Notes: generated by a model from the letters alone, not told the origin. Counted from the stretch's first letter, positions 30,247-36,792 are shown. The stretch is 64,000 nt of DNA from an uncultured Chloroflexia bacterium (GCA_963797095.1 CAWCNY010000002.1:352001-416000); one strand, 5' to 3'. Numbers and translations: made by a program.

Positions 30247-30885
30247 CTATTCGGCCACATCTTGATCTTTGTAGAGGCCTTTTGCCTCGATATACTCTCT
30301 TACAGGCTCCGGAACCCTGTACCTGATGGAGCGCCCTTCGCGCACCCGCCTCCGTATATCGGTGGCGGATATTTCGAGCAGGGGTACGTCTACCCAATCG
30401 ATGGCGGCCGTGATGCCGGGAATCTGCGCTTCCAGGCCCGATGTATCCGCCGCGAAGGTGGGCCTGCGCACTACCGCCAGCCGTGCCTGCGCCACTATTC
30501 GCACAGGCTCGCGCCAGCGTGGGAGGTTCATGAGCGAGTCGCTGCCGATGATGAACCACATGGCGACCTCGCCCGCGCTGCCCCACTCGCGCCGCAACTG
30601 CTCCATGCTATCGGCGGTATAGGATGGCCCTACACGGTCCACATCCACCCGCGATAACCTGAACCGGGGATTGCCCTCGATAGCCAGCCCAATCATTTGC
30701 ACGCGCTCCTCGGCTGGCGTGACGGGCTTGCTTTGCTTTAACGGCTGTAGACCGGCGGGCAAAAAGAGCACGATGTCCAGCGACAGGGCTTCGCGCGCCG
30801 TCTCCGCCATGATGAGGTGGGCTATGTGGATAGGGTCAAACGACCCGCCCATCACCCCTATTCTGGTGCCAGGCGTTCCTTTCAT
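30247..30885 (-). CDS. nadD: Nicotinate-nucleotide adenylyltransferase
   Basis: Motifs GGSFDPIHIAH, GPSYT, FIIGSDS...LP.W, ISATDIR. Confidence 0.93.
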   Translation of the reverse strand: MKGTPGTRIGVMGGSFDPIHIAHLIMAETAREALSLDIVLFLPAGLQPLKQSKPVTPAEERVQMIGLAIEGNPRFRLSRVDVDRVGPSYTADSMEQLRREWGSAGEVAMWFIIGSDSLMNLPRWREPVRIVAQARLAVVRRPTFAADTSGLEAQIPGITAAIDWVDVPLLEISATDIRRRVREGRSIRYRVPEPVREYIEAKGLYKDQDVAE

Positions 30886-31730
30886 TCGACCGCTATATCA
30901 GCGTCCGGCCATTTAGCGCGCAAAGCCGCCACCGCTCTCGATACGACCTCTGCCCGCTGGCCTGTGAGGAACCAGAACTCGGCCCGCAAACGGGCCGTCC
31001 CCTCTGCCACACCCTCCACAATCACCGTGGGTGCGGGACTCTGCGCAACCTCCTTTATTCCTGTGAGCGCCTGATTGATATCTTTTGCCATCTCCTGGAG
31101 ACCTTCCAGGTCGGTTGTCTCCAGGCTCACTTTTATGCCTGCTCGTTGCTGGGGAGATGCCGAGCGATTGGTTACGATCTCGGTCAGCATGGTGTTGTTG
31201 GGCACGACAACCTGCAAACCCTCGTCTGTTCTCAGGTGAGTGGTCCTTAGCTCGATCCCCTGCACCGCTCCGGTTACATCTTTCACGGTGATGCGATCTC
31301 CAATACTGAAAGGCTGCTCCAGCAAGATGAATATGCCCGCTACTACATTGCGCAACAGGTCCTGCAACGACAGGGAGATAGCAAGCCCCGCCACGCTCAA
31401 CACCGCTACCAGGCTGGCGAGTTCGACGCCGATGGCGGCCAGCACATTGATGATACCAAGTAGCACGATCCCGATCTGCGCCAGGTTGCCCACAAGACTG
31501 GCTACGTTCGCATTGAGCCGTTTGCCGCGCAGCAGGAGGCGCACGATCCATCGCTTGGTGGCGCTTGCCAGCACAAGCGCCACCAGCAAGATCACCAGCG
31601 CCCTGACGATATTGAACAGGATGGGTTGCAAGGGGTCGTCGGGTGCGAAGATGCCGAGGATAGCGGTCGCTGCGGGCGGTGGAGTGGGGATAGCGATGGG
31701 TAGTGGGGTAGGTGTGATGATCTGGGTCAT
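30882..31730 (-). CDS. Small-conductance mechanosensitive channel (MscS family)
   Basis: Three TM helices; GLAISLSLQDLLRNVVAGIFILLEQPFSIGD.I; V..IELRTT; VVPN. Confidence 0.9.
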   Translation of the reverse strand: MTQIITPTPLPIAIPTPPPAATAILGIFAPDDPLQPILFNIVRALVILLVALVLASATKRWIVRLLLRGKRLNANVASLVGNLAQIGIVLLGIINVLAAIGVELASLVAVLSVAGLAISLSLQDLLRNVVAGIFILLEQPFSIGDRITVKDVTGAVQGIELRTTHLRTDEGLQVVVPNNTMLTEIVTNRSASPQQRAGIKVSLETTDLEGLQEMAKDINQALTGIKEVAQSPAPTVIVEGVAEGTARLRAEFWFLTGQRAEVVSRAVAALRAKWPDADIAVE

Positions 31731-32233
31731 TTTCCGGCAATTGCCTGCAATATGGCTTGCTCCACTTCGCGAGCCTCCATCTGGTCATGCCAGGTGTAAG
31801 AGGCTTTGTGCTCGCTTCGCGTTCCGGTTGGGTCTTGTAGTGCCAGTTTCAGATTATAGAGGTTGGGCAGACTTGCCAGCCAAACCTGCCAGATGAAGAT
31901 GAACGCTATGAGATAGAGCAATAGAACTCCCGCGAGCACCACCCCGTAAAGCACACCTGTTGCGCCGCTTGCGAGCCACATAAGAAGAAACCCCAGCAGA
32001 AAGCACACCGCGGCAAGTACAATGAGTGGGATGGTGCGTTGGTTGAGTTTTAGCCAGTTACCAAGCTTGATCTGCTTGCGTGTAACCAGGCTTGCGCCGG
32101 CGATAGTCTCAATCTCCCACCGCTCAGCGCCCAGCACCAGCCGCCGGTCGGTCACGATCACCTGACCATCTTTTGATGTATACAGCGTGCGCTCTCCAGG
32201 CCGGGTAGTGTCTGTCATGGGTTTGCTTTTCAC
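31727..32233 (-). CDS. Hypothetical membrane protein (DUF6232-like)
   Basis: VIVTDRRLVLG N-terminus, two central TM helices, C-terminal VEQAILQAI; the stop overlaps the mscS start. Confidence 0.6.
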   Translation of the reverse strand: MKSKPMTDTTRPGERTLYTSKDGQVIVTDRRLVLGAERWEIETIAGASLVTRKQIKLGNWLKLNQRTIPLIVLAAVCFLLGFLLMWLASGATGVLYGVVLAGVLLLYLIAFIFIWQVWLASLPNLYNLKLALQDPTGTRSEHKASYTWHDQMEAREVEQAILQAIAGK

Positions 32234-32243
32234 TTCTCATATT

Positions 32244-35111
32244 TTACTTCGTGAACGAGGCTTCTATTGCTTCCTGTAGCGTGGCTACGGCCAAACCCTT
32301 CATGCCGCTTGGAAGATACGGCTTCTTACTGGTTGGTGGGTATATGGCGCGGGTGAATCCCAGCTTGGCGGCCTCCTGTAGACGTCTTTCGAGTTGTCCC
32401 ACGCTCCTCAGTTCTCCTGATAATCCTATCTCGCCTACCAGAGCCAGTTCAGGGGCCACCTGGGCATCTCTGAACGATGATGCCACGGCCACCGCTACGG
32501 CGAGGTCTACGGCAGGCTCGTTTACTTTCAGACCGCCCACTATATTGACGTAGATGTCCTGGTCGGACAGGCTGAGGCCTACGCGCTTGGTGAGCACGGC
32601 GGTTAGCAAGAGTAGGCGGTTGAGGTCTATGCCGTTGGCTGTACGCCGGGGGAGGCCGAAGCTGGTAGAGGAGGTGAGGGCCTGCACTTCCACCAGGATG
32701 GGGCGCGTGCCTTCCAATGTCACCGCTATGGACGCACCGGGTGAGCCGTCAGATCGTTCGGCCAGAAACGCGGCTGAGGGGTTAGTGATCTCTATCATCC
32801 CCTCGTTGCCCATCTCGAACACTCCCACCTCATTGGTGGAGCCGAAGCGGTTCTTTACGCCCCTGAGCAGGCGGTACTGGTGGAACCTGTCGCCCTCAAG
32901 GTAGAGCACTACGTCCACCATATGTTCGAGGACGCGCGGTCCGGCGATTGCGCCCTCTTTGGTGACGTGGCCCACCAGGAAGATCGGGATATTGCGCATT
33001 TTCGCCAGCCGCAGCAGGCGGGCTGTACACTCGCGCACCTGGCTGACCGAGCCGGCAGCCGACGACATTTCGGCCAGGAACATGGTCTGGATCGAGTCGA
33101 CGATCACCAGCCCCGGCCGCAAAGCGTCGATCTGGGCAAGTATCAATTCGAGGTCTGTCTCCGACAGGAGGAGCAGCTTTTCGGGGTTGAGGTCGAGGCG
33201 GTTGGCGCGCAGCTTGATCTGCTGCGGGCTTTCCTCACCTGAAATGTAGAGTATGGGCTTGTCGCTCCAGAGCGCAAGTTCAGAGGCTAGCTGCAAGAGC
33301 ACTGTTGAGTTATGAACGATAAGATCGTTGGCTACGAAGTTAGATAGCTCAGGTACGGTTATATCGTAAACTTGCGCCTCTCCTGCGGGCTTGATACTTT
33401 CGACCTGATCCCAGTAAACGTTACTATGAGCAAGTGTAGTTAGTTCGGGGCTATCCAACACACCAGCAAGCCTCTGTACTGTACTTCTTGTGAGAGGTCT
33501 CTCGTGCCGCCTATTCATTATCCTGGTGCCCAACGACCTGGAAACGTCAGCCATCGTTCTTTTGCCCCTGGCTTGACTGAATTCTTCCCAGAATCGTGGT
33601 CCTGTCGGCACTACGTCACAGTGGGTAGATGGCAGTTGGGGCTGACGCATTGCCCGTATGCGCACTACAGCCTCCGCGCGCCCCATGATCCCAATCTCGG
33701 CCAGGAATTGCTTGATCATTGCTATTCCAAGCAGGGTCACCTCATAGGCCACATAAGGCTGCCAATTGACGCGCAGATTTTCGGTTCGCAGTTTTGCCAC
33801 CAGTCCGAATCTCAACAAAAGGTGTTGCACATCTTCCGCTAGCTGTTTGCTGATGGTGCTGTAAGATATACCGGGCATGCCATACTTATTCACATAGACA
33901 GAGCCGTCGCAGGTAAATAAGACTTTGAGAAAAATCGCCAACTGCTCCCTGGGGAGTGTGAAAATACAGGGAGGGATAGCCTTGTCTCGCGCTCTCTTGT
34001 AACGCAGGCCGATCTCCTCCAATATTTGTGCGATAGGTGTCTTCATTGCTGCCGCATTACGGGCATCGGGCAGCAACCGCTCGACGGGTAGATTTACCGC
34101 ACCCGCCAGCTTTTCCAATTCAGCGAGGCTGGGAACGCACTCTCCCTTTCGCCATGCGCGCAAGATGCTGTAGCTAACTTGAGCGTCTCGCGCCCATTTC
34201 AGCCAATTAATGCCCGATTCTTGCTTGACTTCGACTAATGCTTTCGACACAAGCGCTCTGTTAGCAACCCGCCTTTTCTGGTCAGTACAGAAGCGATATT
34301 GGGCAGCACTGTTCCCTTTCTTCTCCCATTGAACAAGTTTCATGCCAAATTCTGAGGCGATGGCCTCCAGGTCAGCTGCCACTTCCGGCAATGCTGTTGT
34401 AACGGCTATGGTATCTTGTGCTGAGCCATCGGAGAGCACATATGCGATGAGTTTGACGGTAGCTTCAGTCAAAGCTTGGTTGCCGAAGTAGGGGAGTGCG
34501 CGCGGTGTTGCTATGTAATCCCCATTCTTGAGATCGTCCACACATTTCCAACCTTCATTGGTAAGCAATGGGTGCGCGGGGGTGCAGCGCAGCGTTCGCC
34601 CCAGCCTCGTTCTGACCTCAACTATAGGCTTGATCCCCTGGTGGTGGAACATAGTTACCTTGCTCGATTTAAGCTTCATCGTTTGCCGATCCAGGGCAAG
34701 GATTGATCTGTTGGTACTTTCCCATTCAGTGATGGGTAAATAGGCTCCGGTTGTAGGATCGAGTACACGGGTATCGCCTACGACACATTTTCCGATGCCT
34801 GGTTCGCCCCCGATCAGCACCAGCGAACCCTGGACGATGCCCCCGCCCAGCACCCGGTTGAACTCCTCGCCCGGTATCTTTATGCGCCCGAAGTCCTCGC
34901 TTCTGACCTGTGTGATGGGCGTGGGCCTGTTGCCTGTGCCTTCGTTGCGGGTCGAGGATAGCGCCGATGCAGTCGCCGTGGAAGTGGTGGTCACCGTTTC
35001 CACGAAGGTGTTCCACTCCCCACAATCGGGGCATCTCCCCGTCCATTTCGGTTGTTCTGAGCCGCACTGCTGGCAGACAAACATTGTGCGGGACCTTGGT
35101 TTAGCAGGCAT
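32244..35111 (-). CDS. radA: DNA repair protein RadA/Sms precursor containing an intein
   Basis: C4 zinc finger CQQCG..CPDC; Walker A GGEPGIGK|ST split by the insert; IVDSIQT; KNRFG; Lon-like C-terminus. The exteins total 462 aa, a normal RadA size. Confidence 0.95.
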   Translation of the reverse strand: MPAKPRSRTMFVCQQCGSEQPKWTGRCPDCGEWNTFVETVTTTSTATASALSSTRNEGTGNRPTPITQVRSEDFGRIKIPGEEFNRVLGGGIVQGSLVLIGGEPGIGKCVVGDTRVLDPTTGAYLPITEWESTNRSILALDRQTMKLKSSKVTMFHHQGIKPIVEVRTRLGRTLRCTPAHPLLTNEGWKCVDDLKNGDYIATPRALPYFGNQALTEATVKLIAYVLSDGSAQDTIAVTTALPEVAADLEAIASEFGMKLVQWEKKGNSAAQYRFCTDQKRRVANRALVSKALVEVKQESGINWLKWARDAQVSYSILRAWRKGECVPSLAELEKLAGAVNLPVERLLPDARNAAAMKTPIAQILEEIGLRYKRARDKAIPPCIFTLPREQLAIFLKVLFTCDGSVYVNKYGMPGISYSTISKQLAEDVQHLLLRFGLVAKLRTENLRVNWQPYVAYEVTLLGIAMIKQFLAEIGIMGRAEAVVRIRAMRQPQLPSTHCDVVPTGPRFWEEFSQARGKRTMADVSRSLGTRIMNRRHERPLTRSTVQRLAGVLDSPELTTLAHSNVYWDQVESIKPAGEAQVYDITVPELSNFVANDLIVHNSTVLLQLASELALWSDKPILYISGEESPQQIKLRANRLDLNPEKLLLLSETDLELILAQIDALRPGLVIVDSIQTMFLAEMSSAAGSVSQVRECTARLLRLAKMRNIPIFLVGHVTKEGAIAGPRVLEHMVDVVLYLEGDRFHQYRLLRGVKNRFGSTNEVGVFEMGNEGMIEITNPSAAFLAERSDGSPGASIAVTLEGTRPILVEVQALTSSTSFGLPRRTANGIDLNRLLLLTAVLTKRVGLSLSDQDIYVNIVGGLKVNEPAVDLAVAVAVASSFRDAQVAPELALVGEIGLSGELRSVGQLERRLQEAAKLGFTRAIYPPTSKKPYLPSGMKGLAVATLQEAIEASFTK
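33309..34787 (-). mobile_element. Intein (493 aa) with LAGLIDADG homing endonuclease
   Basis: Block A CVVGDTRV; block B LRCTPAHPLLT; LAGLIDADG-like IAYVLSDG and FLKVLFTCDG; blocks F/G VYDITVPELSNFVANDLIVHN followed by +1 Ser; visibly more AT-rich than the exteins. Confidence 0.95.
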
Positions 35112-35133: not shown

Positions 35134-36792
35134 TTAGTTCGTATTTTGCCTTCGATCTAAGTATAACACAGCGGGGATAATGTACTGGGGTACGAGTTCA
35201 TCTCGGTATTTGCTCCATGTCCTGTAATCACCGTAATTGGCAGCCGTGAACATCACCACCAGATCAAGGTCGGGCACGACTATCACGAACTGGCCGCCAT
35301 TGCCGCCCGCCTCTACCCTTCGATAGGTGCGTCCGGCTACGCTGTACTCACCAAGGTGCCAACCATAGCCGTAGTTGTGGTTCTCAAGCGTTGAGTGGGG
35401 CTGCCAGCTTGCTTCAGTCCACTGTTTGCTGACGATCTGCTTGCCGTTCCATTTGCCTCCTCGCAAGAAAAGCTCTCCAAGTTTCATGAAATCGCGCGGC
35501 CGCATGTATGCGCCACCTCCCAAATAGACGTCTTTGAGGGGTGTCAGGTTCAGGTGGTAGCGTCCGAAGTTGAGGGGGCCGGCTATGTACTCATGCACGA
35601 ATTCGGGCAGCCATGTGCCGGTGGCGTTGGCAATGATTCCGCCCAGCAGGTTGATTCCTGCGCTGCAGTATGCACCCTGCTCGCCCGGTTCATGGGCCAT
35701 AGGGAGGTCCAGGGCATACTTGTACCAATCGAGCTGGGCGCGCTGGTTTTGCATGGTGTCCTCGTTGCCCGGCGAATCGTCGTCATTGTCATCACAATCA
35801 AGCCCGGAGGCCATGGTCAGTAGATGCTCGACGGTAATCCTTTCTTTTCGGGGGTCGTTGTTGGCGAAGCTCGCATAGGATGTGAAGAGGGAGCAGGCGG
35901 GTGTATTGAGGGTGAATCGTGCTCGGCGGTCGAGGGCTATACCTATTATTGGTGAGATGAGGCTCTTGCTCGCTGAGCGCATATCATGAGGGCGCTCGCT
36001 GTCGAAACCATAGAAGTATTCCTCAAGGACCAATCTGCTGTGCCTGGCGATCAGCAAGCCCTGGATGTAGGGTGTCCTTATGCTGTTTGTTTTGGTTTGT
36101 AGTATGTGCTCAATGAGAGCCTTGATCGGCTCAGGGTATATGCCAGCCTCTACGAGTGTACCGGTGCTCCAGCCATCGTTCTGTGCCACGGGTGGGCGGT
36201 AGGCATATTGCTGAGTGTCGGATGTGCGTGGGTAGAAACCGGGTGCGCTGGCGCTGTCACGCCGGGTGAAGGCGAGCGGTTGTGGATGGTCGGGCAGTTC
36301 GATCGAGATCGTGCCGGTGGTGCTGTCGTACCGGATGCTTTCACCTCTCGCCAGGCTGCCGGCTGATATGGGGCCAGGATGCCACCACAGCCCGGCATTC
36401 CTTTCAGGATCTTTTATGAATGCGGAAAGGGTGCCATCGCGCTCCTGATTGATGACCAGGTATAGCTCCAGCCTGTCGTCGAGAGGCACAACTTCGCCTT
36501 TCCAGGCGCTGTTACCTGTGGAGCGCAGAGTGAGCGGTGTGGCATAGGCGGTGCCACTGGTGATATTAGGTGGCTGTATCCAGTGCCCGGCGATTTCTTC
36601 GTCCGCGACTTTGCCTCTGTATTCGCTGCCATCCTCGAACGCGAAGGCTATGCGATCATTGGTTGGCGTGGCAGTGGCGTGCCTCGCGGCGATGCGAGCA
36701 TGCCACACATTCCCATCCGTCGTGATCTCTAGCTCGCCGTGTAGCGATGGGCCGAGCAGTTGTTCATAGCCCCAGATACCGTTGATATCCAT
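35134..36792 (-). CDS. Serine hydrolase, beta-lactamase class C/AmpC-like family
   Basis: SxxK motif (RSASKS); ITVEHLLTMASG; PG...AYCS; MRPRDFMKLG; AGGNGGQ. Confidence 0.85.
   Translation of the reverse strand: MDINGIWGYEQLLGPSLHGELEITTDGNVWHARIAARHATATPTNDRIAFAFEDGSEYRGKVADEEIAGHWIQPPNITSGTAYATPLTLRSTGNSAWKGEVVPLDDRLELYLVINQERDGTLSAFIKDPERNAGLWWHPGPISAGSLARGESIRYDSTTGTISIELPDHPQPLAFTRRDSASAPGFYPRTSDTQQYAYRPPVAQNDGWSTGTLVEAGIYPEPIKALIEHILQTKTNSIRTPYIQGLLIARHSRLVLEEYFYGFDSERPHDMRSASKSLISPIIGIALDRRARFTLNTPACSLFTSYASFANNDPRKERITVEHLLTMASGLDCDDNDDDSPGNEDTMQNQRAQLDWYKYALDLPMAHEPGEQGAYCSAGINLLGGIIANATGTWLPEFVHEYIAGPLNFGRYHLNLTPLKDVYLGGGAYMRPRDFMKLGELFLRGGKWNGKQIVSKQWTEASWQPHSTLENHNYGYGWHLGEYSVAGRTYRRVEAGGNGGQFVIVVPDLDLVVMFTAANYGDYRTWSKYRDELVPQYIIPAVLYLDRRQNTN

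Follow-up and report, generated by a model that had tools for sequence, protein, structure and literature searches.

A LAGLIDADG-bearing intein within the Walker A motif of bacterial RadA/Sms in an uncultured Chloroflexota bacterium and its relatives

The window analyzed here is a stretch of 64,000 nucleotides (nt) (GCA_963797095.1 CAWCNY010000002.1:352001-416000) from an uncultured Chloroflexota bacterium, the genome of which (G000) is a metagenome-type assembly of 8 contigs. On its minus strand lies a radA/sms gene that is interrupted in frame by an intein of 493 amino acids (aa), positioned inside the Walker A motif (P-loop) of the encoded ATPase and containing a homing-endonuclease region. 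The features of the locus are given below, with positions counted from the first letter of the window; in motifs, a vertical bar marks a splice junction.

32244..35111, minus strand: radA/sms precursor gene, a single open frame of 955 codons plus stop (TIGR00416 at 596.7 bits, in two stretches)
34788..35111, minus strand: N-extein, aa 1-108, comprising the zinc ribbon and the beginning of Walker A up to ...GGEPGIGK
33309..34787, minus strand: intein of 493 aa, precursor aa 109-601, from Cys1 to His-Asn
34473..34787, minus strand: N-terminal splicing (HINT) lobe, intein aa 1-105 (TIGR01445; matches to the Ssp/Npu DnaB mini-inteins)
34572..34583, minus strand: block B TPAH, intein residues 69-72, its Thr and His 100% conserved (n=123)
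33468..34472, minus strand: homing-endonuclease region, intein aa 106-440 (LAGLIDADG_3; fold matches to 7qss, 1dq3, 2cw7, PI-SceI and I-OnuI)
34422..34454, minus strand: first LAGLIDADG motif, KLIAYVLSDGS, with the acidic Asp120 of the intein, 98% conserved (n=123)
34068..34214, minus strand: putative helical, helix-turn-helix (HTH)-like module between the LAGLIDADG halves, intein aa ~192-240, suggested by Pfam matches of relatives and three short helices in the model
33900..33932, minus strand: second LAGLIDADG motif, FLKVLFTCDGS, with the acidic Asp294 of the intein, 99% conserved (n=123)
33309..33467, minus strand: C-terminal splicing lobe, intein aa 441-493, ending VHN (TIGR01443), its His and Asn 100% conserved
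32244..33308, minus strand: C-extein, aa 602-955 plus stop, in which Ser+1-Thr completes Walker A as GK|ST, followed by Walker B, KNRFG and a Lon-like domain

The host protein carries all of the hallmarks of bacterial RadA/Sms, namely the zinc ribbon, a RecA-like ATPase with Walker A and B, the GVKNRFG motif, and a Lon-protease-like C-terminal domain, and is matched by the Pfam families Zn_ribbon_LapB, AAA_25, ChlI, and Lon_C. The score of TIGR00416 (RadA/sms) exceeds the cut-off of 403, with profile positions 4-109 matched N-terminal of the insertion and residues 599-949 corresponding to profile positions 105-454; no Rad51 domain was found in the host protein by Pfam or NCBIfam, and the host matches Sms. 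The ATG at 35111 is preceded, 5-6 nt upstream, by a Shine-Dalgarno sequence (GGAG), and the database gene call for the same precursor (P0002) starts at Met10 (nt 35084), giving 946 aa. Within the precursor, Pfam reports Intein_splicing (2.2e-28) and LAGLIDADG_3 (1.8e-17), and NCBIfam places intein_Nterm (TIGR01445) at 109-184 and intein_Cterm (TIGR01443) at 581-602.

The junctions read LIGGEPGIGK|CVVGDTRV on the N side and NDLIVHN|STVLLQ on the C side, so that the cut falls between the Walker A Lys and Ser. Removal of the intein leaves a RadA/Sms of 462 aa (453 aa from Met10) with the Walker A motif GEPGIGKST, and since the intein-free orthologues of the same genus read GEPGIGKSTVLLQ at this site, the insertion is exact and in frame. 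An earlier note on this DNA had described a 493-aa Cys1...His-Asn/Ser+1 intein with a homing-endonuclease domain splitting GEPGIGK|ST, and a normal 462-aa bacterial RadA/Sms upon its removal; the junctions and the Pfam and NCBIfam domains agree with the former, and the TIGR00416 matches on both sides with the latter. Its suggestion that RadA activity is splicing-dependent is right by logic, because no second radA was found in G000, where both matches fall inside this single frame.

The element has the properties of a class-1 intein: a Cys at position 1, a block B TxxH, a C-terminal HN|S, and an in-frame insertion whose removal restores the motif. Its site is the classic P-loop one, exactly between the invariant Lys and Ser of GxxxxGK[ST], and each of its two LAGLIDADG motifs retains the catalytic Asp. 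Conservation was assessed in an alignment of 123 RadA/Sms inteins comprising that of the window, 116 database matches, and six genome loci. No variation occurs in this alignment at Cys1 (Cys109 of the precursor), at the Thr and His of block B, or at the terminal His-Asn, and the endonuclease region is conserved to the same degree as the splicing lobes. Length is likewise constrained, at 490-497 aa in all 109 database matches that have a long C-extein and exactly 493 in 85 of them.

An AlphaFold2 model of the intein, built from 31 sequences (mean pLDDT 92.2, pTM 0.89), predicts a HINT fold joined to a pseudo-dimeric alpha-beta-beta-alpha-beta-beta-alpha LAGLIDADG fold. Its top Foldseek matches are endonuclease-bearing inteins, with TliVMA (7qss; E 3e-21, TM 0.72 on target) followed by PI-PfuI (1dq3), PI-TkoII (2cw7), and PI-SceI, and its nuclease part matches the free-standing LAGLIDADG meganucleases I-OnuI, I-SmaMI, and I-Tsp061I. 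The splicing lobe superposes on the Ssp/Npu DnaB mini-inteins with a root-mean-square deviation of 1.0-1.1 over 95-98 columns, or 1.0-1.7 over 95-100 columns when the Mtu RecA mini-intein is included, and the Ssp/Npu DnaB mini-inteins are also the closest solved chains by sequence (E 2.6e-26 to 4.4e-23). At the place of the HTH-like module, the relatives P0122, P0133, P0145, P0149, P0157, and P0162 score Pfam HTH_31 or HTH_3, and the window's own intein gives no Pfam HTH match at E <= 0.01; additional DNA binding or regulation are possibilities for this module.

With the intein alone as query, a protein database search in which 8000 candidates were scored gave 942 proteins at E <= 1e-3, and the best 120 of these were examined. 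All 120 are RadA/Sms, with 51-70% identity to the intein; RadA-type domains were found in 119, the remaining one being a 532-aa fragment with the same junctions, and GxPGxGK|C...HN|S[TS] junctions were present in 116 of the 119 parsed matches (P0003-P0121). Among species-representative genomes, encoded relatives were found in 165 stretches, the best 80 of which, corresponding to 79 loci, were kept. RadA/Sms intein junctions occur at 44 of the 79, all of them in metagenome-assembled genomes and all with Ser+1. By their record titles, the 44 span about six phyla (Chloroflexota, Thermomicrobiota, Acidobacteriota, Armatimonadota, Methylomirabilota/Rokubacteria, and Sysuimicrobiota), with carriers in the Chloroflexia, Anaerolineae, Caldilineae, Ardenticatenia, Thermoflexia, and Ktedonobacteria of the Chloroflexota and in the Blastocatellia of the Acidobacteriota.

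Counted per genome, the intein is nonetheless infrequent: among 400 other genomes sampled evenly from the phylum (three candidates scored per genome), a full-length intein was found in four and a partial one in one, with radA present in 363 of the 401 phylum genomes. Split TIGR00416 matches in G322, G149, G013, G359, and G187 were rejected as candidates, being contig breaks or short inserts elsewhere and not Walker A inteins. Two metagenome-assembled genomes, G408 (C179 L043; C343 L022) and G243 (C51; C75), contain radA on two different contigs, interrupted by the intein on one and uninterrupted on the other, and the two copies in G408 differ at many synonymous sites near the junction; these could be mixed populations within the bin or a real polymorphism. 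The earlier note had proposed inspecting the hosts of the intein's best database matches and surveying radA alleles in Chloroflexota, both of which are covered by these searches, and had called RadA/Sms an uncommon host. This holds insofar as the family is absent from the top-15 bacterial hosts of Novikova et al. (PMC4760082) and literature searches found no paper on it, but not for the databases, where the allele is abundant and spread over about six phyla; the note's own reservation, that novelty would be reduced were this a common catalogued allele, thus applies in part.

We interpret the element, at a probability of roughly 85%, as a canonical class-1 intein with a two-motif LAGLIDADG homing endonuclease at the classic P-loop position of the sole radA/sms gene, and as a selfish element engaged in a long-running homing cycle. 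Under this interpretation, radA would be translated as an ATPase-dead precursor of 955 aa, unable to bind ATP because its P-loop is split. By established intein chemistry, an N-S acyl shift at Cys109 would be followed by attack of Ser602 and cyclization of Asn601, joining GEPGIGK to ST and yielding a normal 462-aa RadA/Sms together with a free endonuclease of 493 aa. The latter would cut intein-free radA alleles at the insertion site, repair would copy the intein into them, and among related Chloroflexota the cycle would proceed through intein gains and precise losses.

The genus of the source organism offers a view of this proposed cycle. Of its 26 genomes, radA was found in 23, and the Walker A site was readable in 22, among which the intein is present in seven (G000, G415, G419, G409, G440, G408, and G422) and the intein-free allele in 16, with G408 counted in both groups; without the unpublished genomes G422 and G421, the intein is present in 6 of 20. 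On a maximum-likelihood tree of the exteins, intein presence requires six changes over 21 rows, five of them forced by well-supported branches, which is the same as the mean of 6.1 obtained with shuffled labels. Three well-supported sister groupings are unlike in presence, namely G000 and G417 (100/96), G440 and G404 (98/91), and G409 with G407 and G421 (99/97); G417, the nearest relative of G000 at 90% extein identity, is intein-free. Among 14 genomes from the order's sister families, the intein was found in two, at full length in G436 and as 341 aa in G434.

The two alleles of the sister families have exteins that are 91.6% identical and inteins that are only 53% identical, the intein of G436 (L044:960-2438) having 493 aa. 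That of G434 (L045:1026-2048) is missing residues ~135-265, and with them the HTH-like module and most of what separates the two LAGLIDADG motifs, the first of which lies just upstream of the deletion; it looks like an endonuclease in the course of decay.

Selection was estimated with the simple NG86 estimator on five intein pairs. In the closest, G419 and G409, the whole intein has a ratio of nonsynonymous to synonymous substitution rates (dN/dS) of 0.057, compared with 0.052 in its endonuclease part and 0.049 in the C-extein, and the endonuclease part is therefore under strong purifying selection (dN/dS ~0.05). Together with the scattered presence of the intein, the value of 0.052 in the nuclease part lends indirect backing to the predicted site-specific cleavage. 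The RadA/Sms intein, whose homing endonuclease is apparently intact, is probably still mobile.

The flanks of the junction were compared for traces of co-conversion, and the evidence is mixed. The Ser+1 codon (33306-33308 in the window) is TCN at all 44 named intein-bearing loci and in all eight intein alleles of the genus and order, and it is AGY in 8 of 14 intein-free alleles of the genus (7 of 13 without G421), a difference that may mark cleavable as opposed to resistant targets. The intein-bearing G409 and intein-free G407 differ by 6.5% overall and at 6 of 12 nt around the junction (AAG|TCG ACT CTG versus AAA|AGC ACA TTG; per-window probability 5e-5), which fits either a short co-conversion tract or a nuclease-resistant target. 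The low GC content at third codon positions (GC3) of the C-extein start, which the earlier note had reported as AT-rich codons consistent with co-conversion, is real as a description (0.58 over the first 24 codons); it is not distinctive, given that 54 of 331 C-extein windows are equal or lower (binomial p = 0.087), and was rejected as stand-alone evidence.

Several considerations weigh against the proposed homing cycle. Splicing, cleavage, and homing are deduced here from the anatomy, conservation, predicted fold, distribution, and selection pattern of the intein, and the conservation of the endonuclease is equally to be expected of a domesticated function useful to the host. Around the junction, 31 of 90 nt separate G000 from the intein-free G417, compared to 20% overall, yet the flank of G000 shows 18 differences in 90 both to the intein-bearing G415 and to the intein-free G404, so that the odd flank is that of G417 and the co-conversion signal in the window's genome is unspecific. 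The inteins of the genus form a single clade (SH-aLRT 91) with that of G436 from the same order as sister (81); nothing in this tree shows recent long-range transfer, and much of the scatter in presence could also have arisen by vertical inheritance and precise losses on repeated occasions, or reflect an old presence/absence polymorphism.

Because the intein tree recovers the genus, exchange among relatives is indicated rather than recent import from another phylum. Transfer between phyla had been considered on account of the flat identity of the inteins (51-57%) against 48-88% for the exteins, in a plot that drew on the best 120 matches only and was thereby biased, and was dropped after the intein tree; fast intein evolution combined with exchange among relatives is the favored explanation of this pattern. 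Synonymous divergence (dS) also bears on the age of the element. It is 1.62 in the intein compared to 0.47 in the C-extein of G419 and G409, and in the other four pairs it is saturated or near 3.7 compared to 0.57-1.47, which at face value makes the intein lineages older than the splits of the host gene, although this contrast could be inflated by codon usage (GC3 of 0.55 in the intein and 0.73 in the extein) and by the NG86 estimator. Such an excess would be expected from homing among species, or from an old polymorphism of presence and absence.

The earlier note had proposed that the intein jumped from a DnaB-like P-loop site. A profile-free search against 1.84 billion representatives gave 8570 matches (699 at E <= 1e-30), for the best 150 of which junctions were parsed, with Pfam run on 45 of those. 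Within the best 150, the nearest relatives outside RadA are GK|C...HN|S/T inteins of other RecA-like ATPases of the AAA_25/KaiC type (40-44% identity), and the next are DnaB P-loop inteins (33-36%), followed by inteins at the DnaB H4 site and by P-loop inteins of terminase-like, MoxR, DnaX, ClpB-type, and Rad51 proteins. Two intein trees (FastTree, n=108; IQ-TREE with a mixture model, n=49) gave agreeing results.

Considered jointly, these results make it appear unlikely that the RadA/Sms of this lineage acquired its intein recently from a DnaB P-loop, whether by a jump within the genome or by lateral transfer. The DnaB P-loop inteins (RPxMGK|C...HN|T) do align over all 493 aa, with lengths of 489-500 aa and the same HTH module; bacterial RadA is itself a DnaB-type helicase (PMC5512693), a qualification that the earlier note's placement of RadA/Sms in a different family requires; and all of the P-loop inteins are separated from the DnaB H4-site inteins with a support of 98. 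However, an identity of 33-36% rules out anything recent, the RadA/Sms and AAA_25/KaiC-like inteins group together (support 100, stem length 0.71) as a clade of their own, which shares a polytomy with several clades of DnaB P-loop inteins but lies inside none of them, and the RadA allele already extends over about six phyla. In the DnaB of G000 itself, the P-loop is uninterrupted (ARPGVGKTSLSL), and the only intein, at the H4 site, is 34-35% identical to that of RadA. The proposed jump is thus not upheld; a DnaB donor is possible, with nothing recent about such an origin.

In total, G000 holds nine inteins in seven genes: RtcB, DnaB (H4), UvrD, RadA/Sms, PolA (two), class II ribonucleotide reductase (two), and UvrB. 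The stretches outside the window are C2:1270514-1271449, C6:617767-619032, C3:384217-384810, C6:470546-473224, C6:802587-803933, and C2:590408-591922. The last of these (G000:C2:590408-591922, minus strand) is the UvrB intein of 561 aa, which occupies the same Walker A position (GATGTGK|SLGY...FFVHN|TYVM), begins with Ser and not Cys, and is ~25% identical to the RadA intein.

Improbable, in our assessment, is the alternative that the intein has been domesticated as a conditional switch, with splicing gated by single-stranded DNA (ssDNA), DNA damage, redox, or temperature such that the RadA helicase is released when needed; conditional splicing of this intein is pure speculation. Its position within the ATP-binding loop of the only radA gene, the measured constancy of length (490-497 aa in 109 of 109 matches), the dN/dS of ~0.05, the persistence of the element across the genus and order clade, and a Cys68 beside block B that is at least 90% conserved would each suit a switch, for which there are precedents in the P-loops of recombinases and helicases, including Pyrococcus horikoshii RadA and Mycobacterium smegmatis DnaBi1 (PMC5238726, PMC4513877, PMC6195587). 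A function of this kind is difficult to reconcile with the 15 of 22 readable genus genomes that have intein-free alleles only, with the ~395 of 400 other sampled phylum genomes that are without the intein, or with a presence on the extein tree that is as random as shuffled labels, and the conserved residues include the catalytic ones of the endonuclease, as is expected of a mobile element. Some redox-sensitive inteins operate through a disulfide trap between Cys1 and Cys+1, which Ser+1 makes impossible here.

A related idea, to which we give slightly less credence still, is that the intein is a long-lived polymorphism under selection whose splicing responds to DNA damage or ssDNA, possibly via the HTH-bearing region, releasing the branch-migration helicase. 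If true, bacteria would possess, in a helicase of the DnaB type that works together with RecA, an equivalent of the switch provided by the archaeal RadA intein.

Public reads for the locus came from three soil-metagenome runs of one study, with word shares of 0.13, 0.06, and 0.00 and no RNA run among them; two of the runs yielded three short contigs, one of which crosses the C-terminal junction by 9 nt. An assembly chimera, or a dead insertion that inactivates radA as a pseudogene, is effectively refuted: although no public-run read or contig bridges either junction and the assembly is of the metagenome type, the frame is exact and free of stops over 955 codons, all of the splicing residues are intact, the element is under purifying selection, and 116 of 119 parsed, independent database proteins and 44 species-representative loci have this architecture too.

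The neighbors of radA show no link to the intein. All on the minus strand, they comprise a 552-aa protein of the beta-lactamase family (serine hydrolase) at 35134-36792, a 168-aa membrane protein with a weak DUF6232 match at 31727-32233, and an MscS-type mechanosensitive channel at 30882-31730.

The RadA/Sms intein changes nothing in the understanding of how inteins work, and the kind of element is well known. The host protein, on the other hand, appears to have been missed by published surveys while the databases hold hundreds of examples. P-loop inteins have been described in DnaB (site b), MCM, and RFC (Novikova et al., PMC4760082), the Lys|Thr position is regarded as the classic P-loop insertion (PMC5050341), and RecA/RadA are named as bacterial and archaeal hosts only in the recombinase sense (PMC5874633). 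We found no published account of an intein in bacterial RadA/Sms, a provisional result whose scope excludes the bacterial supplementary table of PMC4760082, in which COG1066 hosts are possible. Censuses of inteins that draw on cultured genomes overlook this allele, since it is widespread among lineages from soil and sediment. The replication and repair ATPases with P-loop inteins gain a further member in bacterial RadA/Sms, a branch-migration helicase of the DnaB type. The genus, in which closely related genomes bear alleles with the intein, without it, or with its endonuclease deleted, forms a compact natural data set for the homing cycle, and the nine inteins in seven replication and repair genes make G000 a candidate for asking whether such inteins are coordinated.

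Among known systems, the mycobacteriophage terminase TerL1-a inteins (PMC5050341) have a different host, a phage terminase, and are likened here by position only, which is the same classic Walker A Lys|Thr/Ser site. TliVMA (7QSS), PI-PfuI (1DQ3), PI-TkoII (2CW7), and PI-SceI (1VDE) share the plan of a HINT domain with a pseudo-dimeric LAGLIDADG nuclease (Foldseek probability 1.00, TM-score on target 0.48-0.72) but are 10-16% identical, have VMA ATPase, ribonucleotide reductase, or DNA polymerase hosts, and contain no HTH module at the corresponding place. The Ssp/Npu DnaB mini-inteins (PDB 1MI8, 4O1R, 6FRG) give the best sequence matches of solved structure, at 36-39% identity over the splicing lobe; they, like the DnaB intein of G000, differ in occupying the motif H4 site (RESG|C...HN|SIEQD) instead of the P-loop. 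The RadA intein of Pyrococcus horikoshii and other Thermococcales (PDB 2LQM, 4E2T) also lies in the ATPase domain of a recombination protein named RadA and is a precedent for control of splicing by exteins, temperature, and ssDNA (PMC4513877, PMC5238726). Its host is a Rad51/RecA-type recombinase in contrast to the Sms-type helicase considered here, and the Pyrococcus element is a mini-intein without an endonuclease that is only weakly similar to the RadA/Sms intein (E 1.6e-5, 27 bits).

Closer in kind are the DnaB P-loop inteins (insertion point b, PMC4760082), such as M. smegmatis DnaBi1 (PMC6195587), which interrupt a RecA-fold hexameric helicase at the same Walker A Lys|Ser/Thr cut and share with the RadA intein the Cys1...HN termini, a length of ~490-500 aa, the LAGLIDADG endonuclease, and the internal HTH module. 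They differ in their host, in a +1 residue that is mostly Thr, and in falling into separate tree clades; redox-controlled splicing has been demonstrated for DnaBi1 (PMC6195587). Nearest of all are the inteins of AAA_25/KaiC-type ATPases (P0123, P0124, P0127, P0133, P0135, and P0140), which share the GK|C...HN|ST junctions and, with the exception of P0140 at 423 aa, a length of 490-498 aa. Their hosts, which for P0123, P0124, P0133, P0135, and P0140 are AAA_25/KaiC-like proteins of 785-991 aa, lack the RadA zinc ribbon and mostly the Lon-like domain as well, and P0127 may be a divergent RadA.

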